DNA of 64,000 nt from Candidatus Multivorans sp. (lineage in GTDB: Bacteria; Acidobacteriota; Thermoanaerobaculia; Multivoradales; Multivoraceae). Of the stretch, positions 17,458 to 31,858 are shown in pieces. Location of the stretch: the NCBI GenBank assembly GCA_965247095.1, contig OZ251997.1, positions 407,949-471,948 of the forward strand, in the 5' to 3' direction. The position numbers were made by a program, and so were the translations under genes. Positions within the stretch are counted from its first letter, which is position 1; each line of letters starts with the position of its first letter. The notes beneath the pieces are model-generated. The model ran no database searches. It was not told the DNA's origin and was given only the letters and a program-made list of their open reading frames with translations.

Positions 17458-18150
17458 TCAGCCGCCGAGCATCTTCTCGCGGCGTTCGGCGCGGGCGAAT
17501 GTCAGGGCGACGATGGCGGCGATCGCGAGGGCGATGCCGATCCGGTTCTGGACGCTCATCGCGAGCATCTGGTCGGCGTCGGCTCGGTCCACCGAGAGGG
17601 GGTTCCAGAACGGCGAGATGCGGAGGGGGTTTTCGCCGAAGCCGGTGATCAGGCCGTTGAGGCCAAGGAGGCCGGTCGTGGTCAGGGCGCCGGCCACCTC
17701 GCTGCGGAACAGGGTGGCGAGCCCCATGGCTGCAACCAGGTAGAAGGTGACGCCCTGGGCCGCGCCGTAGAGACTCTGGAAGACGGGGAAGGAGGTGAAG
17801 AAGGCGAACGTGACGGACGCCATCAAGGCCAGACTGGCGAGTAGCAACAGGCCGGCTGCGGCGAGCTTGCCGAGCCAGACGCGGTGAGCGCCGCCGGGTA
17901 CGGTGTAGGCGATCTCAAGAGAGCGCTGGTCGAGTTCGCCGGTGATGATCCGCCCGCCCAGGAACACGGCGAGAACGGCCACCGGCATTCCGATCAGTGT
18001 GTTCTGGGCGGCGTCACGTTCGAAGCCCGTCGCGGCGCCGGCCAACAGCAGGATCGCCTGCACGGCTAGCCACAGTAGCGGCAGCAGGGGCAGCAACCAG
18101 TAGCGCCGCCCTGCCAGCAGCACCGCGGACAGACGCAGCACGGCGATCAC
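17458..18150 (-). CDS. ABC-2 family transporter permease, paralog 1 of 3 (cognate of the fused ATPase upstream)
   Basis: 230 aa multi-TM; GTG start overlapping the stop of the RND-ABC fusion ORF (GTGA). Confidence 0.7.
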   Translation of the reverse strand: MIAVLRLSAVLLAGRRYWLLPLLPLLWLAVQAILLLAGAATGFERDAAQNTLIGMPVAVLAVFLGGRIITGELDQRSLEIAYTVPGGAHRVWLGKLAAAGLLLLASLALMASVTFAFFTSFPVFQSLYGAAQGVTFYLVAAMGLATLFRSEVAGALTTTGLLGLNGLITGFGENPLRISPFWNPLSVDRADADQMLAMSVQNRIGIALAIAAIVALTFARAERREKMLGG

Positions 18151-21100
18151 GTCGGGGCTCTGCCGCGCGCCGCCTGCGCCAGCCAGAGGTAGCCGTCCTC
18201 GAGCGTGGGTTCGACTGGTTCGGCCCGCCGATCGGGGCGGTCGGCAGCCAGCACGCGCAGGCGGCTGCTGCCGTCGGGTTCCGGTTGGCGATCGGCGAGC
18301 ACGGACGCCTCGGGAAGCTCCGGCTCCTCATCTCCGGGCGCCGTCCATGACCAGACACGGCCTTCGGCCTCTCGGGACAGCGCCGCCGGCTCGCCGTCGA
18401 ACACCATGCGGCCGCCGGTGAGCACCAGTACGCGCTCGCAGGCCACCGCCACGTCCTCGACGACGTGGGTCGAGAAGAGGACGATGCGGTCCTTGGCCAG
18501 GCGCGAGAGCAGGTTGCGGAAGCGGACGCGCTCGCGTGGGTCGAGGCCGACGGTCGGCTCGTCGACGACGATGATCGGCGGCAGGCGCAACAGCGTGCGG
18601 GCCACCGCGACCCGCTGCCGCATGCCGCCGGAGTAGCCGCCGATCGGTTCGTCCGCTCGCTCGTCGAGTCCGACTTCGCGCAGCAGGGAGCCGATGCGCT
18701 CCGCTCGCTCCGACGCCTCGATCTGGTAGAGCGCGGCGTAGTACTCGAGGTACTGCCGGGCCGTCAGGCGCGCCGGCAGGCCGGCGTCCTGCGGCAGGTA
18801 GCCGACGTAGCGGGCCAGCCGTTTCCGTATCCTGAGCAGGGGCACGCCGCCCAGCGTGATCCGGCCGCGGGTCGAATCCAGAATGCCGGTCACCTGGCGG
18901 AGCAGGGTCGTCTTGCCCGCGCCGTTCGGACCCAGCACGCCGACCATGCCCCGCTCGACATCGAAGCTCACCGCGGCCAGCGCCTTCACCGTGTCGATCG
19001 GCAGATCGAGACCGAAGATCCGGGTTGCTGCCGCCCGCCAGAGGCGGATCAACATGCCGCGCCAGCCACGGGTGCGCCGGCGGCGGGTTGACCGCTGCTC
19101 CCGGCGCACCGTCTCGAGACGGGCCGTGCGACGTCCGAGTTGGATCAGAAGGATGATCGTGGAGAGGATGGCCACGACGATGAACCCGCCCACCGCGGGC
19201 TCGGTGGCGAGAGCCGGACCGACCAGGCCCGCGAGAAGCGCCCAGGGCAGCAGGGCGGACAGAACGCCCTCGATGCCGCCCGGCTCGACTCGACCAAGCG
19301 CGTCGGCGCGGCCGCGGGCACGCCGGACCTCGGTCAGCAGCCGGGAAGCGATCAGCAGTGCGGCAATCCAGGCGCCCAGTTGGATCAGGTCGGCACGGAA
19401 CCTCATGGCCAGGGCGACCGCGCCGGCGAGCAACAGGAGCAAGGGCAGGATGCGGTCCCGCGCGTCGGCGGGGTGGAAGGCCTGACCGCCGCGGTCGACG
19501 ACCTGCTTGGCGAAGTCGGTCGATGCCCGCAGCGCCCGGCGCACCGGCCCCGGCCGGCCGTAGGTCTTGCGCAGGTGACGGACCACCAGCCGGGGCGGTC
19601 CGGCGTCGGCCTCCGGTTCCGGTGTCGGCGGTTTTGGCACCAGCCACACGGTGAGCCCGAGCAGGGCGCCGGCGATGAGCACGGTCGTCGTGACCTGCCA
19701 GAACATGGACTCGATCACGCCGAGAACGAACAACGGGGCGGTGGCCGCGATCACCGCGCCGAGCCAGGTCAGAACCACCCAGGGTCCGACGCGGCTGAAG
19801 ACATCGTCCAGGCGCCGCAGAAAGACGTAGCCGACCGGGATGACGAGCAGCGTGAGCACGGTCGAGGTCAGAAGACCGCCGATCACCAGGGTCGCGAAGG
19901 GCGGCCAGAGCTCGTTCTCGCGTCCCGTGGCGATGGCCAGCGGTGCGAGCGCCGCGATCGTCGTCGCGCTGGTCATCAACACCGGACGCGCGCGCTCGCG
20001 AACCGCGGCCAGGGCGGCGGCGCCCGCACTCCAGCCGGCGCCGAGTACCCGTTGCTGCATCCGGTCGACGAGCAGAACCGCCGGGTTCACCGCCAGCCCG
20101 AGGAGGACGAGCGCCCCGAGCAGCGCCATCGGATCGAGCCCGATGCCGGAGAACATCAGCGCCCACAGCGAGCCGAGCAGGGCGAGCGGCAGCGCGAGCA
20201 GAACAAGGATCGGCAGGGTCATCGACTCGAACGCCACCGCCAGAACCAGGAACACGAGCATCACGACCGGCGCCAGGACGCGCCGGAACCAGCTCGTGTT
20301 CTCGTCCGAGCGGTCGAGCTCGATTGTCGTTCCGGGCGGACGGTGGATGCTGGCAAGCGCCTCGTCCAGGTTGCGGTCGAATTCCAGCCGCGCCGGTCCG
20401 CCGCTTGGTACGTCGGACGAGACGCTGTAGATGACCTCCCGCTCGCGGCGGCCGTTGTGGTGTGTGATCACCGGGGAAGCCGGCGCGCGGCGCACCTGCG
20501 CCAAGGCGGCTACTGGCAGGACGCCAGCGCTCGTGGAGACGCGGAGCCGGGACAGGCCGCTCAGCGACGCCTCGCGCTCGAAACTGCTGCCGTCCACGAC
20601 CCGGGCGTCACTGGGTCGGTTCTCCGCGCGCTGGACGACGATCGGAAGCTCACGGCCGTTCGGAAGCGGGAAGCCGCTGTTGATGCTCGTACCCTCACGG
20701 CCGGCGAGACTCAGCATCGGCAGCACATCGTCGAGCAGGACGCCGAAGGTGTCGAAGGCGCGACGGTTCGGGCTGACGTGGATCTCGTCGGGGCCGGGCC
20801 GTGAGGCTAGAAAGGCGCCGCTGATCCCCTCGATCTCCTTGAGCCGCTCGGCGACCTCCGTGGCCAGACCGGTCAACTGGTCGTTGTCGTTTCCGGACAG
20901 GATGACCCGTTTCGGCCCTGCCCCGAGCAACTCCTGGGCGCCGCCGCCACCGCCGGGACCGCCGCCCCGACCGCCCGGGCCTTCGCCTTCGCCGGGTCGC
21001 AGAATCTCGGTACCGGCGCGCCGGTTCGCGGCCCGGCGTACGAGCTGACGGATCCGCGCCGCGGTCAGTTCCTCGGGGCGGTCCTCGAGTGCCTCGAGGT

Positions 21101-22964
21101 GGACCGTCAACGAGCCCCCCTCCTCGCGGATCATGCTTTCGACGCGGTCCACGCCGTCGACTTCATGGACCGCCTCCAGAGGCTGGAAGGCGCGCACCGC
21201 GGAATCGAGCGAACTCCGGCTCTCGTCGAGGCGCACGGAGAACTGGACCTGGTCCGCGATCTCTGCTTCTGGCGACACTGTGTTTCCGAGCACAAAGGGC
21301 AGGGCCACGAGCGCGGTGACGACGACGGCGAGAGCCACCGACGTGATCCAGCTCGCAGGCCGCCTCAGTGCCGAGGCGAGAACTCCTGCAAACAGGATGC
21401 GGATCGGGTCGGGCGGCGCCTGTCCGGCGAAGCGTTCGCGGCGCTGTCGCAATCGGGCCAGCCGGCGGATCGCCGCGGGCGCGGCGAGATGGCGGGCCAG
21501 CAGCGGTACGAGACCGATCGCCACCAACAGGGAACCGAACAGCGGCAGCAGGATCGAGAGGGCGGCGATCGCGATCAGGTTGCGGATCATCGACGATCCC
21601 AGGTCGACGAGCAGCGGCGGCACGAAGACGACCGCGGTGGTCACGGACGCGGCGATGATCGCGCGGGCGGTGCGGCGGATGCCTCCCGCCGCGGCGTCGT
21701 CGGGACTTCGGCCCCGCTCGAGGCGGCGTTGGACGGACTCGAAGACCACGACGCTGTTGTCGACCAGCAGTCCGACGCCGACCGCAAGGCCGAAGAGGCT
21801 GATCAGGTTCAGGGTCTGGCCGGCCAGGTAGAGGAAGGACAGCGCCGCGGCCAGGCTGACCGGCACCGCGATCGCTACCACCGCCACGGCCCGCCATTGG
21901 CGCAGGAAGAGGAACAGGACCGCAAGGGCGATCAGGAAGCCTGAGAGACCGAGGTTTCTCAGACGGCCGATCTGGGTCTCGACGAGTTCCGCGGCGTCGA
22001 GGCTGATGAGCAGATGAATGCCGAGGGGCTCGAGATCTGCGTTGACCTCCTCGATCCGGCGGCGCAGGTCGCGGCCGAGGCGAACCAGGTTCGCGCCCTC
22101 TTCCTGGAAGAGCAAGACCCCAACCGAGGGGTCGCCGTTGACCCGGAACAGCATTTGTCGGCGGCCGGGGCCGACTTCGATCTCGGCGACGTGGCGCACC
22201 AGAGCCGGCCGGTCCGGCACGATCCGAACCTCGCCCATGGACACCGGGCCGACGGGACGGCCGTCCAGCATCACCGCCGTTCGCCCGGCTTCGTCTTCCA
22301 GGCTGCCGAGGTAGCGCAAGCGGCCGGCCGCGGCGCGCACCGCCGCCGTCACCTGCTCCGTGGTGACGCCGAGCGCTGCACAGCGGTTCGGGTCGACCCA
22401 GACGGTCAACTGCCGCGACGCACCGCCGCCGACGATCGCCTGACTGACGCCCGGCACCGCGGCCAGCCGCGGCGTGACGAGTTCCACGACCAGGTCGTGC
22501 AGGGCGTTCTGGTCGGCGGCGCCGGTGACCTGCAGGACCATGGCGAAGCTGGAAATGGCACTGCTGTCCTGGGCCTGGACGTCCAGGAAAGCGTTCCGCG
22601 GCTGGGTGCGGGCGAGGTCCGCGGCGATCCGGCGCACCTCCAGCTCGCGGACCTTCAGGTCGACGCCGCGTTCGAAGAGGATCGTGAAGCTGCCGCCGGC
22701 GCCGCTGACCTCGCCCCAGGTCTCGGCGACCCGCGGCAGGGTCCGTACCCGGGCCTCGAGCGGCATCAGGATCTCCCGCTCGATCGTCTCCGGTTCGCTG
22801 CCCGGGCGGAAGAAGTTGACGTAGAGCTGGTCGCCGGTCAGGGCCGGGAAGAGTTCGACCGGCAGTCGTCGCCAGGCGAACAGCCCCAGGATCACAAACC
22901 CCAGGAAGAACATCGCCACGGCGACGGGGCGGCGAATGGCAAGGGTGTCGAGACCGGCTCTCAC
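18147..22964 (-). CDS. Fusion protein: RND (AcrB/HAE-type) efflux pump, ~4 extra TM helices, C-terminal ABC transporter ATP-binding domain (1605 aa)
   Basis: N-terminus MRAGLDTLAIRRPVAVAMFFLGFVILGLFAWRRLPVELFPAL and internal TM blocks (GLAVGVGLLVDNSVVVFESV, LVFLVLAVAFESMTLPILVLLALPLA) are RND hallmarks; C-terminal ~300 aa has Walker A GPNGAGKTTL, Q-loop, signature LSGGMRQRVAVARTL, Walker B IIVVDEPTVGLD, H-loop STHVVED; single uninterrupted frame; GTG start. Confidence 0.75.
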   Translation of the reverse strand: MRAGLDTLAIRRPVAVAMFFLGFVILGLFAWRRLPVELFPALTGDQLYVNFFRPGSEPETIEREILMPLEARVRTLPRVAETWGEVSGAGGSFTILFERGVDLKVRELEVRRIAADLARTQPRNAFLDVQAQDSSAISSFAMVLQVTGAADQNALHDLVVELVTPRLAAVPGVSQAIVGGGASRQLTVWVDPNRCAALGVTTEQVTAAVRAAAGRLRYLGSLEDEAGRTAVMLDGRPVGPVSMGEVRIVPDRPALVRHVAEIEVGPGRRQMLFRVNGDPSVGVLLFQEEGANLVRLGRDLRRRIEEVNADLEPLGIHLLISLDAAELVETQIGRLRNLGLSGFLIALAVLFLFLRQWRAVAVVAIAVPVSLAAALSFLYLAGQTLNLISLFGLAVGVGLLVDNSVVVFESVQRRLERGRSPDDAAAGGIRRTARAIIAASVTTAVVFVPPLLVDLGSSMIRNLIAIAALSILLPLFGSLLVAIGLVPLLARHLAAPAAIRRLARLRQRRERFAGQAPPDPIRILFAGVLASALRRPASWITSVALAVVVTALVALPFVLGNTVSPEAEIADQVQFSVRLDESRSSLDSAVRAFQPLEAVHEVDGVDRVESMIREEGGSLTVHLEALEDRPEELTAARIRQLVRRAANRRAGTEILRPGEGEGPGGRGGGPGGGGGAQELLGAGPKRVILSGNDNDQLTGLATEVAERLKEIEGISGAFLASRPGPDEIHVSPNRRAFDTFGVLLDDVLPMLSLAGREGTSINSGFPLPNGRELPIVVQRAENRPSDARVVDGSSFEREASLSGLSRLRVSTSAGVLPVAALAQVRRAPASPVITHHNGRREREVIYSVSSDVPSGGPARLEFDRNLDEALASIHRPPGTTIELDRSDENTSWFRRVLAPVVMLVFLVLAVAFESMTLPILVLLALPLALLGSLWALMFSGIGLDPMALLGALVLLGLAVNPAVLLVDRMQQRVLGAGWSAGAAALAAVRERARPVLMTSATTIAALAPLAIATGRENELWPPFATLVIGGLLTSTVLTLLVIPVGYVFLRRLDDVFSRVGPWVVLTWLGAVIAATAPLFVLGVIESMFWQVTTTVLIAGALLGLTVWLVPKPPTPEPEADAGPPRLVVRHLRKTYGRPGPVRRALRASTDFAKQVVDRGGQAFHPADARDRILPLLLLLAGAVALAMRFRADLIQLGAWIAALLIASRLLTEVRRARGRADALGRVEPGGIEGVLSALLPWALLAGLVGPALATEPAVGGFIVVAILSTIILLIQLGRRTARLETVRREQRSTRRRRTRGWRGMLIRLWRAAATRIFGLDLPIDTVKALAAVSFDVERGMVGVLGPNGAGKTTLLRQVTGILDSTRGRITLGGVPLLRIRKRLARYVGYLPQDAGLPARLTARQYLEYYAALYQIEASERAERIGSLLREVGLDERADEPIGGYSGGMRQRVAVARTLLRLPPIIVVDEPTVGLDPRERVRFRNLLSRLAKDRIVLFSTHVVEDVAVACERVLVLTGGRMVFDGEPAALSREAEGRVWSWTAPGDEEPELPEASVLADRQPEPDGSSRLRVLAADRPDRRAEPVEPTLEDGYLWLAQAARGRAPT

Positions 22965-22977
22965 GTCGCTTTCCGGT

Positions 22978-25900
22978 TCAGGCGCCGGACGGGTCGCGGC
23001 GGCGCCGGGTCAGTCGCATCGAGTCGAGTATCAGGTAGAGGCAGGGCAGCACGAGGAGCGAGCCGACGGTGGAGGTGAGGATGCCGCCGATGATCGTGTA
23101 CGCCATCGGGCTTCGCAGTTCCGCGGCTTCGCCGGCGCCTATGGCAAGCGGCGCCAGGACCAGGACAGTGGTCAGGGTCGTCATCAGGATCGGCCGCAGG
23201 CGGATCGCGGCGGCCCGGGCCAGTGCGGTGCGCCGCTCCATGCCGGCGGCGAGCAGCCGGCGGGCGGTGGCAATCAGGAGGACCGCGTCGTTCACCGCCA
23301 CGCCCGCGAGCACGATGAGGCCGAGCAGCGCCATGACACCGACCGGCCGTCCGAGGAAGCCGAGGGTGCAGGCGACGCCGACCAGGGCCAGGGGGATCGA
23401 GAACAACACCGTGAGCGGTTGGAGCAGGGACTCGAACGTTCCGGCGAGGACCATCAGCACGAGAACGAGCGCCAGCAGCCCCGCCCAGCGCAGTTCGCCG
23501 ACGGCGCGCTCGCGTTCCTCTTCCTCGCCGGCGAGACGGACGATCAGACCGGAGGGCAGGTCGGTTGCTGCGATCGTCTCGCCGGCTGCCGCGATCGCGC
23601 GCGGGTAGTCGCTGTCGTCGGCGACCCGGGCGGTCACCTGGGCGACGCGGCGCTGGTCGCGGCGGAAGACCTCGCGGGCGCCCTCGGCGGGGACGAAGCG
23701 GGCGACTTGGCCGAGGGCGAGGTCCGCGCCGTCGTTGCTCGTGAAGCGCAGTTTGGCGAGTTCCTCGGGCCGCGGCTGGGGCAGAGAGAGGACGACGTGG
23801 CGCTCCTCGTCTCCAGTCGAGAGCAGGGTGACCCTGCGGCCGTCGAGTGCGGCCTGGAGCACCCGGGCGATCGTTTCCAGGCCGACGCCGAGGCCGTCGG
23901 CCATCGCGCGGTCGAGTTCGATCCGCAGTTCCGGCGGTCCGCCCTCGAACGAGGAGCGGACGTTCCAGAGTTCGGATCGCACAGCCATCGCGTCGCGCAA
24001 CCTGGTGGCCGCCAGGCGCAGGTCGGGCAGCGACTGGCCCGCGATCTCGACCACGATCGGCGGTCCCGCGGAGCCGAGCGCGCGCGATAGCGCCGACGCC
24101 CCGACCTCCCACTCGATCTCGGTATCCGGCAGGTCTTGGAAGTTGGGCTGCAGGGCGGTCACGATCTGGCCGCCGGTCGGCCCTTCGGCGGACAGCCGGA
24201 CGAGCAGGCGGGCCGTGTTCTCCTCAGTCAGCTCCGTGGTCACGAGCCGATCGTCCTCGGGCAGGCGGCCGACCTCGGCCTGGATCGCCTGCAGGTGCTC
24301 GCCGGCAGCCTGCCTGACCGCCTCTTCCAGCGTCGCCACGGCGCCGGCGGTGGCCTCGACGCGCTGGCCGGGCGGGCCGACCATGCGCACCGAGAACTGC
24401 CGCGGGTCGGCAGGCGGCAGCAGTTCGCTGCCCAGTCCGAGCAGAACGTAGACGGCGCCGGCGGCGGCGAGCACCGCCACTCCGACGACCAGCCAGCGAA
24501 GCTGAAGCAGGCCGAGAACCAGGCGCTCGACGGCGCCGAAGGCCCAGCCCAGCGGACGCGCTTCGTCTTCGTCAGCGTCCACCGGCATGCTGATGGATGC
24601 CGCCGCCGATGCGTCGGCCGTGGGCTCGGGCGCGGCGGTTTGCGGTTTGGCGCGCGGCAGGAGCCAGCGCGACAGGGCCGGAATCAGCATGATCGCGACC
24701 GCCAGGGAGGCGCCGAGGGAGGCGGTGACGGTGAAGGCGATGCCTTCGATCAGGCGCGCCGCCAGACCCTGGACGAAGAGGACGGGCAGGAAGACAACGC
24801 ACGTAGTGAGCGTCGAGGCGGCAATCGCGCCCGCGACCTCGCCCGTGCCCCTGGCGGCCGTGTCGGCTGCCGAGGCGCCGGGGCGGTGGCGGCGGTGGAT
24901 GCTCTCCACGACGACGATCGCGTTGTCGACCAGCATGCCGGCGCCGAGCGCCAGCCCGGCCAGGGTGATGATGTTCAGAGAGTGCCCCCACAGCCGCATC
25001 GCGAACAGCGCGACGAACAGGGACACCGGCACCGCTGAAGCGACGACCAAGGTCGGACCGAGGGAGCGCAGGAACAGCGCCAGCACGACGACCGCCAGGG
25101 CGATGCCGATCAGCGCCGCGTTCGTCAGGTCGTCCATCGCGTCCTCGATCAGCGCGGCGTCGTCGTTGACCATCGAGACGAGGACCCGGGGCAGGTCGCG
25201 CTCGAGGTCGTCGAGCGCCGCGCGCACGGTGCGCGAGACCTCCACGGTGTTGGCGCCCGCCTCCTTGAACACCTGCAGGCCGACGCCCTCCTGGCCGTTC
25301 ACCCGCACCAGGTGGTCGATCTCGGCGTGTGCGAGTTCGACCGTGGCGACGTCGGAGACCCGGATCGGCTGACGGACCTGCCGGCCTCCCTCCGCCTGCT
25401 GGGTGCGGTAGCGCACGACGACCCGCTCGACATCGCGGGAGTTCCGGAACCGGGAGATGCCTCGAACGAGATAGACCTGACCGCCGTCCTCCAGGGTGCC
25501 GGCGTCGATGTCGACGTTCTCGGCCACGAGGCGTTGCTCCAGTTGGTCCAAGGTGACGCCGAACGCCTGCAGGCGGTAGCGGTCGACGCGTACGCGGACC
25601 TCCAGTTCCCGCCCTCCGAGGACCCGCACCTCGGCAACGTCGGCGAGCTGCTCCATGGCCGGCGCCACCTGACGGCGCGCCAGGCGGCGGAGCTCGGCGA
25701 GATCAGGTCCTTCCGGCTCGGCGGCCAGCCCAAGGGTGATCACCGGCGACTGCCTCGGATCGAGTTGGCGGACCAGGACCTCGTCGACTTCGGGGTCGGC
25801 CGCGACCGGATTGACCGCCTTCTGCACGTCGATCAGCGCCAGGTCCATGTCGGCGTCCCAGTCGAAGCGGACGGTGGCGATCAGGCGGCCGGTGCGGGCG

Positions 25901-26172
25901 ACCTGGTGCACCTCGCGGAGGCCGCGCACCGTGAACAGGCGCTGCTCGACCTGCTCGCCGTAGAGCCGCTCCATCTCGGTCGGCGGCCGGTCGCCGGAAC
26001 GCACGGCGACGACGATGGTCGGCGAACGCAGGTCGGGCAGGAGGTCGATCGGCAGTTCACGCCACGACATCCAGCCCACCAAGGCGAATGCCAGGGCGGT
26101 GACGGTGACCGCTACGGGCCGGCGCGCAGCCAGGCGGGCGGGGCCGAAGGTCTCACCGGATGTTCGAGTCAT
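22978..26172 (-). CDS. RND efflux transporter permease subunit (AcrB/HAE family), 1064 aa
   Basis: MTRTSGETFGPARLAARRPVAVTVTALAFALVGWMSWRELPIDLLPDL..., 12-TM RND organisation with two large periplasmic loops; 13 bp upstream of the fusion gene. Confidence 0.8.
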   Translation of the reverse strand: MTRTSGETFGPARLAARRPVAVTVTALAFALVGWMSWRELPIDLLPDLRSPTIVVAVRSGDRPPTEMERLYGEQVEQRLFTVRGLREVHQVARTGRLIATVRFDWDADMDLALIDVQKAVNPVAADPEVDEVLVRQLDPRQSPVITLGLAAEPEGPDLAELRRLARRQVAPAMEQLADVAEVRVLGGRELEVRVRVDRYRLQAFGVTLDQLEQRLVAENVDIDAGTLEDGGQVYLVRGISRFRNSRDVERVVVRYRTQQAEGGRQVRQPIRVSDVATVELAHAEIDHLVRVNGQEGVGLQVFKEAGANTVEVSRTVRAALDDLERDLPRVLVSMVNDDAALIEDAMDDLTNAALIGIALAVVVLALFLRSLGPTLVVASAVPVSLFVALFAMRLWGHSLNIITLAGLALGAGMLVDNAIVVVESIHRRHRPGASAADTAARGTGEVAGAIAASTLTTCVVFLPVLFVQGLAARLIEGIAFTVTASLGASLAVAIMLIPALSRWLLPRAKPQTAAPEPTADASAAASISMPVDADEDEARPLGWAFGAVERLVLGLLQLRWLVVGVAVLAAAGAVYVLLGLGSELLPPADPRQFSVRMVGPPGQRVEATAGAVATLEEAVRQAAGEHLQAIQAEVGRLPEDDRLVTTELTEENTARLLVRLSAEGPTGGQIVTALQPNFQDLPDTEIEWEVGASALSRALGSAGPPIVVEIAGQSLPDLRLAATRLRDAMAVRSELWNVRSSFEGGPPELRIELDRAMADGLGVGLETIARVLQAALDGRRVTLLSTGDEERHVVLSLPQPRPEELAKLRFTSNDGADLALGQVARFVPAEGAREVFRRDQRRVAQVTARVADDSDYPRAIAAAGETIAATDLPSGLIVRLAGEEEERERAVGELRWAGLLALVLVLMVLAGTFESLLQPLTVLFSIPLALVGVACTLGFLGRPVGVMALLGLIVLAGVAVNDAVLLIATARRLLAAGMERRTALARAAAIRLRPILMTTLTTVLVLAPLAIGAGEAAELRSPMAYTIIGGILTSTVGSLLVLPCLYLILDSMRLTRRRRDPSGA

Positions 26173-26211: not shown

Positions 26212-27312
26212 TTATTGGGAAACCCGGACGCGGGTGCCGTCGGTCAGGGTTTCGAGGCCGCGAACGACGACCCGCTCGCCGAGCTCCAGCCCCTGGCGAA
26301 TCTCGGTGATCTCGTCGTCGCCGAGACCGAGAACGACTTCGCGCCGCACCGCGCGCTGGCCGTCGAGGACGAAGACGACGCGCCGGCCGCCGCGCTCGGT
26401 AACCGCCTCGCGCGGAATGACGGGGACGTCGTTGCGCTGCTCGACGACCAGGGTCACTTCGACGAACATGCCCGGCCGCAGCAGGCCGCCGGGATTGCGC
26501 ACCGCCACCTCGGCGCGGAAGGTGTGGGTGACCGGGTCGACCTCGGGGGACAGGCGGACGACCCCGCCTTCGAACGTCTGGCCCTCCCAGGCGAAGTGCC
26601 TGAGCCGGCCCCGCTGCCCGGGGTGGACCCGCGCCAGTTCGGGGCCCACGAGGTCGATGTCGGCGATCAGGGAGGCGACCGGAGCGATCCGGGCCACCTG
26701 GAAGCCCCGGGAAACGAGCTGGCCGTCGGCGATCGGCATGCCGTTCGGGTCGCGGGCGAGTTCCATCAGCACGCCGCCGATCGGGGTCAGCATCTTCGCG
26801 CGGTCCTCGGTAAGCAGGCTCTGCTCCCAGGTCGCCTTCGCGTCTTCGAGCGCGATCTCGGCGCGGCGCAGCTCTTCGGCACTGATCAGTTCCTGCTCGA
26901 ACAGCTTGGCGCGGGCGTCGCGTTCGGCCTCGGCGCCCAGGTAGGCTTGGTGGGTCGCCTCGACCCGGGCCGCGAGCCGTGCGTCCTCGCCGGTGACCTC
27001 CGCGATCATCTGCTCGGGGACGACGCGGTCGCCTTCGGCCAGCCGGTCGCCGGAACCGTTGCGGCCGATCAGCAGTCTCCCCGGCGTCTCGACCTGCAGG
27101 ACGATGCTCTCGGCCGCTCGCAGAGTGCCGGTGGCGACGATCAGATCCTCGACGTTGCCGGTTTCGACCTCGGCCGCGGTGACCGGCACCAGGAAGTCGA
27201 CGGGGTCCGTGCTGCCGCCGCCTTCGCAGGCGACGATCACGGCGCAGGCGGCTATCGCGAGGCCCGCATGCCGGAGGCCGGCGATCGGGCGGGAGGGCTG
27301 CCGCGGGCTCAT
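26212..27312 (-). CDS. Efflux RND adaptor subunit (membrane fusion protein, HlyD/AcrA family), probable lipoprotein
   Basis: Start moved to ATG 27312 (MSPRQPSRPIAGLRHAGLAIAACAVIVAC), overlapping upstream stop as ATGA; coiled-coil segment (AEELRRAEIALEDAKATWEQSLL) plus beta-barrel/MP region typical of MFPs; upstream 173 aa of the ORF are Arg-rich junk. Confidence 0.75.
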   Translation of the reverse strand: MSPRQPSRPIAGLRHAGLAIAACAVIVACEGGGSTDPVDFLVPVTAAEVETGNVEDLIVATGTLRAAESIVLQVETPGRLLIGRNGSGDRLAEGDRVVPEQMIAEVTGEDARLAARVEATHQAYLGAEAERDARAKLFEQELISAEELRRAEIALEDAKATWEQSLLTEDRAKMLTPIGGVLMELARDPNGMPIADGQLVSRGFQVARIAPVASLIADIDLVGPELARVHPGQRGRLRHFAWEGQTFEGGVVRLSPEVDPVTHTFRAEVAVRNPGGLLRPGMFVEVTLVVEQRNDVPVIPREAVTERGGRRVVFVLDGQRAVRREVVLGLGDDEITEIRQGLELGERVVVRGLETLTDGTRVRVSQ

Positions 27313-30300
27313 AGCCCCGCGCCCCCGGTCTCGGCGCGGCCGGCGGCGGCGCTGTTGTCGAGCCGCACGAAGCGCACCGCGTCCGCGGCGACCGCTTTGC
27401 CGGAGGTCTCGTCGCTCAGGACCAGTTCGGTCGGGCCGCCGGCCAGATCGAAGTCGCCCAGCACCGCCCATCCCGCGCCCGCGGCCGCGGCGTCGAAGTC
27501 GATCGGCCGGGAGACGCCGCCGTTCTGCAACTCCAGGTCGTAGGTGCCGAGAGCCAGCCCCAGGTTCACCGAGACCCGTACGCCGCCGTCGTCGTCCCCT
27601 CCTCTTCGTGGTGCGTCTCCACCTCCGTCGCCGACCCGCACTTCCCGACGCACGGCCGTGGCGCCGGCTGGCAGGGGCGAGAGCGACGGCACGTGCAGTT
27701 CGACCCGCCAGCGGCCGTCTGCCGGCAACTCCGTCCGGTAGATCGCGCGGCTGTTCCCTTCGCCCGCGGGCGCCAGGGCGGTCGTGCGGCGGTAGCGGCC
27801 CCAACTGGTGGGCTGTGCGTAGCGCGACCATTCGGTCGGCGGTCCGCCGAAGCTCTGGTAGACGAGCAGACCCTGATCCGTCTGGTTCGACGGCGCGAAG
27901 AAGCCAGCGAGACCGCCCTGCAGCCGGAAGCCGCCGGCATCCGCTTCATCCGTCTCGATCGAGAAGCCGGGGTCCAGGTCGTCGACGACGATCATGTCGG
28001 TCGTTGACTCGAGGAAGGCGGGCAGCCAGTCGGCCGGCCGCGTGCCGCGCAGTGGTTCGGCATCGACGATCGTCTCGTTGTTGACGCTCGGCAGATCGAT
28101 CGGGAACTCCCGGCGGTTCAGCGACAGGTAAGGTGAAGCCAGCATCCTGCCCGGCACCCTGGAAGTGACCAGACCGAATTCGACGGAGCTGTTTCCCGGG
28201 ATCAGGGTCGGCTCGCTGGACTCCCAGCGCACGCCGCTCGGTGCGCGGACGGCGTAGCGGAGCCGGAACAGGCCCGGAGCCTCCTCGCCGTTGTGGACGA
28301 AGAGACGGGTCTGGTACTGCGGCAGGCCCTGGTCGTCGTCCGCCAGCCGCACGAGTTCGGCGGGGGATACGACGAAGCCCGGCAGGTCGGTCTGGTGGAG
28401 GAAGTCGCCGACCAGGCCGGCGAGGTCCAGGCCGGCTTCCTGAGCGGCCCGTTCGAGGTCGGCGGCGGTGAAGGTCGATCCCCGGTGGTCGCGCATGAGG
28501 TTCGCGAGCATCGCGGCGGTCCGTTCCCGGCCGGCGCCGTCCAGAATTGCGCCGGCAAGGGCCGAAGTCTTCAGATAGAGCGCGTTCAACGCTTTCTTCG
28601 GCTCCTCTTCGACGTCCATTTCCGTCAGCGAGGCGCCGAGAACGGCGTCCCATACCTCGGGGCGGTCGGTGAGGCTCTGTACGATGGTGCTGGAGACCGA
28701 GGAGGCGCCTCCGCCGAGCTGGCTGAAGATGGCGCCCTGCAACACGCTGGCGATCGTCCAGCCGAACTCGCGGTCGAACAGGTGGGCCGAGAAGTACGAT
28801 TCGCCGCCGTTCACCAGCCGGTTCACCAGGTTGTTGCACAGTTCCTCGAGCGCCAGCGCCTCCGGACCGCGGGCGCCGGTCTGGTACATGAACAGATTGC
28901 GGACACCGCCGACCTCCACGTTGCCGCCCGAGAAGTCGTTGCGGAAGAACTGCTGCAGCCCGGAGGCCTTTGCCCGGGGCAGACCGCCCTCCTGCTCCTC
29001 GAACCGCTCCGGGTTGCGGAACAGGAACTCGAAGCGAGCGGTCGGCAGGCTGCTCTCGCTGAGCAGCAGCATGCCCGGCGGCGCGCGCTCGGTGTCCATC
29101 CGCCAGCCGCCGCCGTAGGAGCGCAGGGTCCAGGGAACTTCAACCAGGGTGAGCTGACGGTAGGGGTAGGGCAGGCCCAGCTCGCGCGCGCTGGTGAAGC
29201 GCTCGGCGGCGACTGCCTCGATCTCTTCCCGGGCGTCGGCGAAGAGCTCCACGTTTCTCAGATGGCGGGGGTGGAGGAGCAGTTCGATCTCGACGCCCTC
29301 GACCTCCGTCGTCCGGCGATCGAACCGACCGGCGACCAGGGCCGCTTCGGGCACGACTGCCACGGGTGCGAACCGTTGCCGTTCGCCGGCCGGCTCGGCT
29401 CTGCCTGGCCCGGCGACCGTCCAGCCCGAGGGGGCGCCGACCTCCAGGTCGAGTTCGAAGAAGTCTCTGGGACGCCTTCGCGGATCGGTGAGGCCGACCG
29501 ACGTGCCGGGGCGCGGCATCCAGGCCAGCGCGGCGGGCAGCGCGACGTAGCGGCGCTCCGCAAAGCCGTTCAGGGCGCCGAGAAGGATGATCTGGGCGTC
29601 CTGGAACTTGATCCGGTTGAAGTCGATCGCGGAATCCAGGTACGCGAAGCGAAGGTCGGGCCGTCCGTGGGCGCGCAGGCGAAGGTCGACGGCCTCGCCC
29701 GCGGCCGGCGAGCGCCCGAGGTCGACCTCGAGCAGGCCGTCGCGGTGGTTGAATCCGAGCGTCGCGCCGGCGGTATCCTCAATGGCGTCGACCTGGAGGC
29801 CGGGGTTCAGGCTGAAGAGAGCCTGCGAACCGCCGGCGGCGAGGAACCGGACGTTGACATCGAGGGTCAGGCGGCCGCGCGGTGCGATGTCGACGGCGCC
29901 GTGGATCTGTTCCAGGTCAAGGACCGGTTCGCTCTGGCGTGCCGTGTGGGCGATGCGCCAGTCGTCGATTTCGTCGACCCGGTTGCCGGCCGTGACCGCG
30001 GCGGCTGCGATCGTTCCGATGGCCGCCGCCAGGAGGCCGGCGCCGGCGGTGGCCCACAGGCGTCGCCGGGTGTCGTCGAGCCGGGGATGGACGGCGACGG
30101 CGACCGCAAGCATCCCAACGGCCAGCGCCGCGACCGTGGCCCGGTTCATCAAGTTGAAGGCGGTCCAGATCTGGGGCGCGACCTCGGAAGGATTGGTGCC
30201 GAAGCCGCCGTTGATCGCCAGCATCGGCAGGACGTAGGTCGGCACGCGGAAGGAGAGAAGCATCGGCCCGATGGCCAGCCCGAGGCCCAGGAGCGCGGCG

Positions 30301-30860
30301 ACCAGGCGGTTGCCGCTCAGGAGTGACGCCACATGGACGAAGGCGATGGTCAGAGCCAGCGCCGGCAGCGCCTCGGTCAGCAGGTAGGCCCAGACGGAAC
30401 TCCAGATCGCCGGTTCGCCCACGTACCAGCCGAGCGCCACGCCGAGATGGCCGATGCCCTGGATGATCATCATGCCGATGAAGGCGACGCCCCAGATCAT
30501 GATCAGGGCGCCGAGGAAGCGGCCGAGGACGAGTTCGGCGTTCGAATAGGGCCGGCTGTCCAGGACCTCGATGACGCGGTCGCGCCGGTCCCGTGCGCGC
30601 AGATCGAAGGCCAGGAACACGACGCCGATCGCGAGAACCATCGTCTGCGTCGAAGCCATCTGAGCGAGCAGGAACTTCGGGCTCATCGCGCCGACCGTCG
30701 CCGAGAACGACGAAAAGAGGCCGTGGATAACCCAGTAGTAGCCGTACGACACCAAGCCGACGAGGAGTGCGAGGCCCGAGAACAGCCAGAAGCGGAACAG
30801 CCGGCGGAGGGTGCGCATCTCGGCGCGGGCCAGCGACCAGACGGCGGCGAGTGAGATCAC
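27309..30860 (-). CDS. ABC-2 type permease fused to a large (~900 aa) C-terminal extracytoplasmic domain of unknown function (1183 aa)
   Basis: N-terminal ~280 aa with 6 TM (MISLAAVWSLARAEMRTLRRLFRFWLFSGLALLVGLVS...), then long soluble domain without recognisable catalytic motif; GTG start overlapping ATPase stop (GTGA). Confidence 0.65.
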   Translation of the reverse strand: MISLAAVWSLARAEMRTLRRLFRFWLFSGLALLVGLVSYGYYWVIHGLFSSFSATVGAMSPKFLLAQMASTQTMVLAIGVVFLAFDLRARDRRDRVIEVLDSRPYSNAELVLGRFLGALIMIWGVAFIGMMIIQGIGHLGVALGWYVGEPAIWSSVWAYLLTEALPALALTIAFVHVASLLSGNRLVAALLGLGLAIGPMLLSFRVPTYVLPMLAINGGFGTNPSEVAPQIWTAFNLMNRATVAALAVGMLAVAVAVHPRLDDTRRRLWATAGAGLLAAAIGTIAAAAVTAGNRVDEIDDWRIAHTARQSEPVLDLEQIHGAVDIAPRGRLTLDVNVRFLAAGGSQALFSLNPGLQVDAIEDTAGATLGFNHRDGLLEVDLGRSPAAGEAVDLRLRAHGRPDLRFAYLDSAIDFNRIKFQDAQIILLGALNGFAERRYVALPAALAWMPRPGTSVGLTDPRRRPRDFFELDLEVGAPSGWTVAGPGRAEPAGERQRFAPVAVVPEAALVAGRFDRRTTEVEGVEIELLLHPRHLRNVELFADAREEIEAVAAERFTSARELGLPYPYRQLTLVEVPWTLRSYGGGWRMDTERAPPGMLLLSESSLPTARFEFLFRNPERFEEQEGGLPRAKASGLQQFFRNDFSGGNVEVGGVRNLFMYQTGARGPEALALEELCNNLVNRLVNGGESYFSAHLFDREFGWTIASVLQGAIFSQLGGGASSVSSTIVQSLTDRPEVWDAVLGASLTEMDVEEEPKKALNALYLKTSALAGAILDGAGRERTAAMLANLMRDHRGSTFTAADLERAAQEAGLDLAGLVGDFLHQTDLPGFVVSPAELVRLADDDQGLPQYQTRLFVHNGEEAPGLFRLRYAVRAPSGVRWESSEPTLIPGNSSVEFGLVTSRVPGRMLASPYLSLNRREFPIDLPSVNNETIVDAEPLRGTRPADWLPAFLESTTDMIVVDDLDPGFSIETDEADAGGFRLQGGLAGFFAPSNQTDQGLLVYQSFGGPPTEWSRYAQPTSWGRYRRTTALAPAGEGNSRAIYRTELPADGRWRVELHVPSLSPLPAGATAVRREVRVGDGGGDAPRRGGDDDGGVRVSVNLGLALGTYDLELQNGGVSRPIDFDAAAAGAGWAVLGDFDLAGGPTELVLSDETSGKAVAADAVRFVRLDNSAAAGRAETGGAGL

Positions 30861-31858
30861 TGTCGGGCCTCCTCTCCGGAGGTCGTGTCGCCTGCGTCCG
30901 CGTCCGCCGATCCTTCGCCGCCATCGGACCGAGCGTTGTGGGCGGCTTTGTTCCCGCCGAAGTGCTCATCGGTCACCAGGGCTTCGGCACGACCGCGCGC
31001 GACCATGAAGGCGAGGTATCCCTCCTCGAGGGTCGGCGACGAGGCGATCCGCGCTCGTGCCGGTACGCCGCCGGGCGCCGCGACGGCGCGGTAGGTCGTT
31101 TCGTTCATGCTGACGGTGCGCGAGACGATCTCGAAGCCGCCTTCGGGCTGCGGCGCGGATGTCGGCAGGGTCAGCTCGAACACCTGGCCCTGGGCGCGCT
31201 CAAGCAGTTGGGTGGGGGAGCCGCGAAAGACGATCTTGCCCGCGTCGAGCAGGGCGAGGTCGTTGCAGCCGGTGCCCAGGTCGGCGACGATGTGGGTCGA
31301 GAGGATGATCGTCCGCTCGCGGCCGAGGCTCGCCATCAGTTGGCGGAAGCGGAGCCGCTCCTCCGGGTCCAGACCGACCGTGGGTTCGTCGACCACCAGC
31401 AGGCGGGGTTGGTGGATCAGCGCCTGGGCGATGCCGAGGCGGCGGGTCATGCCGCCTGAGAGCTTCTTCACCTTGCGGTGCGCGACCTCGCCCAGGCCGA
31501 CGCTGTCGAGGACGGAATCGACGCGGGCCCGGCGGGCGCCGCGGTCGTCCAGGCCGGAGAGCTCGGCCAGGGTGTCGAGGACCTCCTCCACGCGGTGCAG
31601 ACGCCAGGCGCCGAATTCCTGCGGCAGATAGCCGAGATGTGCGCGGACGCCGCGCCGCTGCGAGACCACGTCGTGGCCGAAGACGGTTGCCGTCCCGCCG
31701 CTGGGCTTGAGCAGCGTGCAGACGATCCGCATCAGGGTGCTCTTGCCGGCGCCGTTGGGGCCCAGCAGGCCGAAGAGACCCGCGCCGATCTCCAGATCGA
31801 CGCCGTCGAGAGCTACTGTGCCGCCGCGATAGACGTGGCGGAGGCCGCGCGCGGCCAC
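30857..31858 (-). CDS. ABC transporter ATP-binding protein
   Basis: Walker A GPNGAGKSTL, signature LSGGMTRRLGIAQAL, Walker B LLVVDEPTVGLD, H-loop STHIVAD; acidic C-terminal tail; first gene of the minus-strand transporter locus. Confidence 0.85.
   Translation of the reverse strand: MAARGLRHVYRGGTVALDGVDLEIGAGLFGLLGPNGAGKSTLMRIVCTLLKPSGGTATVFGHDVVSQRRGVRAHLGYLPQEFGAWRLHRVEEVLDTLAELSGLDDRGARRARVDSVLDSVGLGEVAHRKVKKLSGGMTRRLGIAQALIHQPRLLVVDEPTVGLDPEERLRFRQLMASLGRERTIILSTHIVADLGTGCNDLALLDAGKIVFRGSPTQLLERAQGQVFELTLPTSAPQPEGGFEIVSRTVSMNETTYRAVAAPGGVPARARIASSPTLEEGYLAFMVARGRAEALVTDEHFGGNKAAHNARSDGGEGSADADAGDTTSGEEARQ

Follow-up and report, generated by a model that had tools for sequence, protein, structure and literature searches.

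The gene at 27309..30860 on the minus strand of the window (the whole 64,000-nucleotide stretch of Candidatus Multivorans sp. DNA analyzed here) encodes an ABC-2 permease fused to a module with the fold of an M1 aminopeptidase, predicted to be a zinc-less pseudo-peptidase, and to a CBM-like module. The initial annotation had described the ~900 aa that follow the permease as a domain of unknown function, and had proposed HMM searches, structure prediction and topology prediction as checks. Using AlphaFold, Foldseek and profile searches, this domain can now be named as an M1 aminopeptidase fold plus a CBM-like module. The protein, hereafter PermM1, is divided as follows:

27309..30860, minus strand: whole gene, encoding the ABC-2 permease, the putative M1 pseudo-aminopeptidase and the CBM-like module (ORF, GC3 of 0.87, homologues, AlphaFold)
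29985..30860, minus strand: membrane domain (aa 1-292), with an N-terminal amphipathic helix, a 6-TM ABC-2 (type V exporter) core and an extra TM7
29934..29984, minus strand: periplasmic stalk (aa 293-309), an extension of the TM7 helix (H266-307) with conserved W301 and H305 (AlphaFold)
29340..29933, minus strand: M1 domain I-like beta domain (aa ~310-507)
28377..29339, minus strand: M1 domain II-like (thermolysin-fold 'catalytic') domain without a zinc site (aa ~508-828)
29031..29144, minus strand: putative pseudo-active-site strand (aa 573-610, VEVPWTLRSYGGGWRMDT...PGMLLLSESSLPTAR), placed where M1 enzymes have their GAMEN strand (low-stringency hhalign)
28920..28955, minus strand: candidate HExxH-equivalent helix segment (aa 636-647, QQFFRNDFSGGN; family consensus fF.ndf.Ggn; colinear hhalign with PepN)
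28026..28376, minus strand: beta-sandwich at the M1 domain III position (aa 829-945), all-beta in the AlphaFold model
27363..27998, minus strand: CBM6/35/36-like (Golvesin_C) beta-jelly-roll (aa ~955-1166; HMM and fold)

The open reading frame, with its GTG start and 1183 codons for amino acids, was recovered from the ORF list and translation exactly as first annotated. Its GC content by codon position (0.72/0.50/0.87) was typical for real genes in a window of ~70% GC. Some 100 full-length homologues were found, and because these come from several phyla and align from residue 1, we exclude a chance ORF and regard the frame as a gene. Translational coupling on both sides, also part of the initial annotation, was seen in the junction sequences: the GTGA overlap between the stop of the upstream ATPase gene and the start of permM1 reads ...GGAGAGGAGGCCCGACAGTGATC..., with a strong Shine-Dalgarno sequence at the junction, and the ATGA overlap between the permM1 stop and the start of the downstream adaptor gene reads ...GGGCTATGAGC....

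Hydropathy analysis gave seven hydrophobic segments with K/R-rich cytoplasmic loops, and the AlphaFold model (mean pLDDT 89.8, pTM 0.87) placed membrane helices at residues 22-49, 65-93, 107-143, 153-182, 185-203, 234-257 and 266-307. The count of six transmembrane helices made earlier must accordingly be raised to seven. TM7 and the stalk form one 42-residue helix in the model (266-307), and within the stalk W301 is conserved in 93% and H305 in 90% of the family. No hydrophobic segment was detected by hydropathy in the ~890 aa that remain after aa 292, in agreement with the earlier statement that there is no C-terminal TM. As the number of TM helices is odd, the large domain should therefore lie outside the cytoplasm, and aa ~293-1183 are predicted to be periplasmic; a permease fused to a large, non-repetitive extracytoplasmic domain, as originally proposed, is the topology that both methods support.

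The membrane domain was modeled as a NosY-like type V exporter fold with a 6-TM core, other structural neighbors being Rv1217c, PmtD, ABCA3 and ABCG2. PermM1 itself scored 21.2 bits against Pfam ABC2_membrane_2, below the gathering threshold of 27.2, while PF12679 matched 20 of 41 diverse family members (best E 7.5e-10) and is assigned to many homologues in precomputed annotation. JGI labels homologues with the COG name 'multi-copper enzyme maturation permease'.

The structure prediction that had been proposed as a check yielded a confident model that contained the M1-like and CBM-like modules. When this model was searched with Foldseek, the best 50 matches were all M1 aminopeptidases (best match IRAP, E 7e-17, ~640 columns), and a family profile run against PDB sequences matched 6a8z in three colinear stretches (E 3e-9). 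An M1 fold, consisting of the N-terminal beta domain and the thermolysin-like domain, is thus present in the modeled protein. The relationship was visible only through the fold search and the profile comparison with PDB sequences; the proposed HMM check against peptidase families came back negative, with no match to Pfam Peptidase_M1 or Peptidase_M1_N in 41 diverse family members at E ≤ 1. The beta-sandwich at aa 829-945 has the conserved residues R838, Y849, N857 and N915, and the length of the Foldseek alignments to four-domain M1 enzymes (~640 columns, for which Foldseek did not report the aligned query residues) suggests that they extend into it.

Sequence scanning showed that HExxH and GxMEN are absent from PermM1, which has no His at all between aa 534 and 692. 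Among 244 close relatives, to which the scan was confined (6242 hits in all), GxMEN was absent and none had HExxH at the catalytic position; two chance HExxH strings occurred, both elsewhere in their proteins. The earlier remark that no obvious catalytic motif could be seen, HExxH and GAMEN included, therefore extends from PermM1 to the catalytic position of these relatives. Since both motifs are missing from PermM1 and from the catalytic position in all 244, we conclude that the M1-like domain of the family is, as judged by sequence, a zinc-less pseudo-peptidase.

To place the segments that correspond to the lost motifs, the family profile was aligned with E. coli PepN using hhalign. Default local mode aligned a single stretch with confidence, aa 762-831 with PepN 381-450, and the global-mode alignment was meaningless; a low-stringency colinear alignment was used to locate motif-equivalent segments, not residues. 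There, PepN HEYFHNWTGN aligned to aa 636-647, in a register that is uncertain at the level of residues, and under any register this segment has no conserved His or Glu. The strand equivalent to GxMEN reads YGGGWRMDT / LxRE, and its assignment to aa 573-610 likewise has low residue-level confidence. Y762 aligned with PepN Y381, the catalytic Tyr, in a column that varies across the family (consensus x). Between aa 600 and 760 the only conserved polar residues are E602, R654 and W737. Within the strand at aa 573-610, E602 is invariant and E574, R580, G584 and G585 are each at least 90% conserved, and no other 15-mer of the protein is as well conserved as aa 573-587 (mean column identity 0.79). 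The pattern of conservation indicates that this pocket strand, at the old active-site position, is probably still under selection.

The fold relatives of PermM1 are the M1 zinc aminopeptidases, above all the two-domain enzyme of Deinococcus radiodurans (6A8Z/6IFF), PepN, ERAP1/IRAP and LTA4H. Unlike these, PermM1 lacks HExxH-X18-E, GxMEN, a conserved catalytic Tyr and the helical domain IV, has ~85 extra residues in domain II and is anchored to a transporter. A non-catalytic M1 aminopeptidase fold also occurs in TAF2, a subunit of TFIID; this protein is eukaryotic, nuclear and unrelated to transport, and the fold is its only link to PermM1.

The fusion of an ABC-2 permease to a recognizable M1 peptidase is already catalogued, as TCDB 3.A.1.145.1. 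Family 3.A.1.145, whose type member is the 1200-aa Myxococcus xanthus protein Q1D520, is described as having 13 TMSs and a zinc-dependent peptidase domain and as functionally uncharacterized, and one of its members is annotated 'multi-copper enzyme maturation permease' (PMC3924187). Compared by this published description, PermM1 shares an N-terminal ABC-2 domain whose TMS count is odd, a hydrophilic M1-type C-terminus of ~900 aa and a length of ~1200 aa. It differs in having 7 TMSs and not 13, in an M1 domain that is invisible to Pfam and without catalytic motifs, and in its additional CBM-like module. Apart from the TCDB 3.A.1.145 description, searches of the literature on ABC-2/M1 fusions, on ABC-RND combinations and on 'Candidatus Multivorans' turned up no specific report.

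The C-terminal module of PermM1 scored above the Pfam cut-off for Golvesin_C and has a beta-jelly-roll fold in the model, interrupted by a disordered, poorly conserved insert of 30 aa (aa 1065-1096). Its N-terminal strand, IVVDDLDxGF, ranks among the most conserved motifs, and the family profile matched xanthan lyase among the PDB sequences (6f2p, E 1e-4). Xanthan lyase and the Bacteroides lectins Cbeg4 and Cbeg5 also contain a domain of the Golvesin_C type, and related domains bind glycans (PMC9166713). From fold and family membership, the module may have a glycan-binding role. It belongs to the same CBM6/35/36-like_2 (Golvesin_C) type as the C-terminal module of xanthan lyase, the xanthan-binding module MiXBM and Cbeg4/5, from which it differs in its attachment to the periplasmic side of a transporter and in the 30-aa insert.

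PermM1 is encoded within a six-gene ABC-RND cassette, a wider setting that the initial annotation had missed. The other five genes are:

30857..31858, minus strand: partner ABC ATPase of DrrA/GldA/NosF type, 333 aa, with a GTGA overlap with the permM1 start (Pfam, NCBIfam)
26212..27312, minus strand: RND-type periplasmic adaptor (membrane fusion protein, MFP), 366 aa, with an ATGA overlap with the permM1 stop (NCBIfam, Pfam)
22978..26172, minus strand: RND permease 1 (RND1, AcrB/MdtB/C-like), 1064 aa (Pfam ACR_tran, E 1e-198)
18147..22964, minus strand: RND permease 2, a ~260-aa linker and a C-terminal ABC ATPase domain in one ORF of 1605 aa (RND2::ABC; Pfam)
17458..18150, minus strand: second ABC-2 permease (ABC2b), 230 aa (ORF list, weak ABC2_membrane_2 match)

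The partner ATPase matched Pfam ABC_tran (E 1.5e-29) and, below the cut-offs, NCBIfam drrA (2.5e-58) and GldA (2.4e-54). Its motifs are intact (Walker A GPNGAGKS, signature LSGGM, Walker B LLVVDEP, H-loop STH). The adaptor exceeded the cut-off for TIGR01730 RND_mfp (158.8 against 94.9 bits) and also matched HlyD_D23. In RND2::ABC, ACR_tran covers aa 8-1049 and ABC_tran aa 1331-1471; PF00873 and PF00005 occur together in many metagenome proteins. Going by ORF coordinates, ABC2b begins with a GTG codon and overlaps the 3' end of the RND2::ABC ORF by 4 nt. At the cassette end, this window also encodes small, Cys-containing secreted peptides, and additional ABC2b copies lie downstream.

Conservation of the cassette was assessed in the 59 loci with enough flanking sequence. 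The ATPase lies upstream of permM1 in 54 of them and the adaptor is conserved in 54, RND1 in 53 and ABC2b in 50, while the RND2::ABC ORF is uninterrupted in 53. The order ATPase, PermM1, MFP, RND1, RND2::ABC, ABC2b is colinear at 53/59 loci, and at 22/27 of those below 50% identity, across Acidobacteriota, Gammaproteobacteria, Desulfobacterota and one Bacteroidota MAG. A comparison of distant loci showed no genes upstream of the ATPase to be conserved across lineages, so the cassette appears self-contained. No outer-membrane factor is encoded in it or just downstream. Three orphan paralogues (L021, L060 and L078) have no adaptor or RND neighbors; because they exist, a protein of this type presumably also works outside the cassette. 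Their neighbors are unrelated, and these contexts gave no functional clue. At 50% identity and E ≤ 1e-30 the family falls into at least 1209 clusters. It is found in 440 species genomes, where its annotation goes no further than "ABC transporter permease subunit" or "hypothetical".

In gene order the cassette resembles MdtA-MdtB-MdtC, where an RND_mfp adaptor is followed by two different tandem RND permeases, and it resembles MacAB in that ABC and adaptor are co-encoded. It is unlike both in that all scores fall below the equivalog cut-offs, there is no outer-membrane factor, RND2 is fused to an ABC ATPase, and the ABC permeases are of ABC-2 and not MacB type.

Taken as a whole, the reading that we hold to be somewhat better than an even bet is that PermM1 is a NosY-like ABC-2 subunit that carries a non-catalytic periplasmic M1-like ligand clamp and feeds the RND pump. 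Its transmembrane part would be powered by the ATPase encoded directly upstream, the transporter presumably being a homodimer with two ATPase subunits. TM7 would lead the chain into the periplasm, where it would continue as a rigid stalk bearing the M1-like module, the beta-sandwich and the CBM35/Golvesin_C-type module. ATP binding and hydrolysis would extract an amphipathic ligand (peptide-like or a glycoconjugate) from the inner membrane and, through mechanical coupling along the stalk, would also open and close the clamp. M1 enzymes show open and closed domain motions, and NosFY, the closest solved membrane domain, operates with the large periplasmic partner NosD. The clamp would hold the ligand without cleaving it, probably by way of the pseudo-active site and the CBM-like module, and would then hand it to the co-translated adaptor and the heteromeric RND1/RND2 pump downstream, although gene adjacency is no proof of a physical or functional hand-off. 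RND pumps pick up what they export in the periplasm or at the outer leaflet.

A stronger form of this proposal, which we put forward as tentative and hold to be less likely than not, is that the six genes encode one composite envelope machine of a kind not described before. In it, a heteromeric RND pump run by protons would be in physical contact with, and coupled to, ABC-2 modules run by ATP, and the dead aminopeptidase would serve as a periplasmic clamp or gate for the ligand. If this were true, the cassette would represent a new hybrid class of ABC-RND transporter, and not two neighboring efflux systems.

Whether the ligand crosses the membrane is the sole difference between the favored clamp reading and one in which PermM1 is a pure mechanotransducer, as in NosDFY, FtsEX, LolCDE and MacB, with no substrate passing the inner membrane. 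ATP hydrolysis would then only drive conformational work by the M1-like and CBM-like modules: they might, for example, assemble, load or gate the adaptor-RND machine, or else remodel a glycan or peptide of the periplasm or cell envelope. The two readings overlap, and the present results fit transport and transduction alike. NosDFY itself is built differently: NosD is a separate beta-helix protein, whereas PermM1 has a fused M1-like domain and the extra TM7, and there are no nos genes here. The other structural neighbors, Rv1217c, PmtD, ABCA3 and ABCG2, are true exporters of amphipathic molecules, which argues against a pure mechanotransducer, and we consider it unlikely.

An exporter of lipid-linked or free glycan, resembling Wzm, KpsM or TarG and holding the emerging polymer with the CBM-like domain and the M1-like scaffold, seems to us improbable. 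Export of O-antigen, capsule and teichoic acid is the textbook task of ABC-2 transporters, and the high conservation of the IVVDDLDxGF strand would suit such a role. So would the CBM35/Golvesin_C type of the C-terminal module, which is close to a xanthan-binding module (PMC9166713).

The conserved strand at the old active site, being the best-conserved part of the protein, could also be read as a sign that the M1-like domain is an active enzyme with a non-canonical site, which hydrolyzes or modifies an exported peptide in the manner of the C39 domain of PCAT exporters. Consistent with this are the invariant or near-invariant residues E526, H533, E574, R580, D589, E602 and R654, the small secreted peptides at the cassette end, and the precedent of TCDB 3.A.1.145.1, in which the ABC-2 domain is fused to a recognizable zinc M1 peptidase (PMC3924187). 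We consider activity of this kind very unlikely.

We give hardly any credence to the GldF-GldG-like fusion suggested in the initial annotation, in which the periplasmic part would be homologous to the GldG/ABC_transp_aux auxiliary component: GldF was the weak best NCBIfam match of the membrane domain (E 3.4e-4, 20.7 bits against a cut-off of 288.5), the ATPase resembles GldA at a score far below its cut-off, and the layout of an ABC-2 permease and an ATPase of the same broad subfamily with a large periplasmic accessory is analogous to GldAFG, but the proposed HMM searches gave no match to GldG, ABC_transp_aux or DUF4350 in PermM1 (Pfam, NCBIfam) or in 41 diverse family members (Pfam, E ≤ 1), and aa 310-945 have the M1 aminopeptidase fold instead. 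GldG homology was rejected on these grounds, and the likeness to GldAFG is one of layout only.

These results give a concrete architecture to ~900 unannotated residues of a very large, cross-phylum family, and PermM1 would be a case, in bacteria, of a transporter that has recruited an M1 pseudo-enzyme. The pocket strand, as the most conserved part of the protein, is a clear target for mutagenesis. The fusion of an RND pump to an ABC ATPase within a conserved cassette suggests that ATP- and proton-driven efflux modules can form one machine. If confirmed, such a one-machine ABC and RND design would be new to efflux-pump biology, and would bear on the envelope physiology of abundant uncultured Acidobacteriota and Gammaproteobacteria of marine and sponge-associated habitats.

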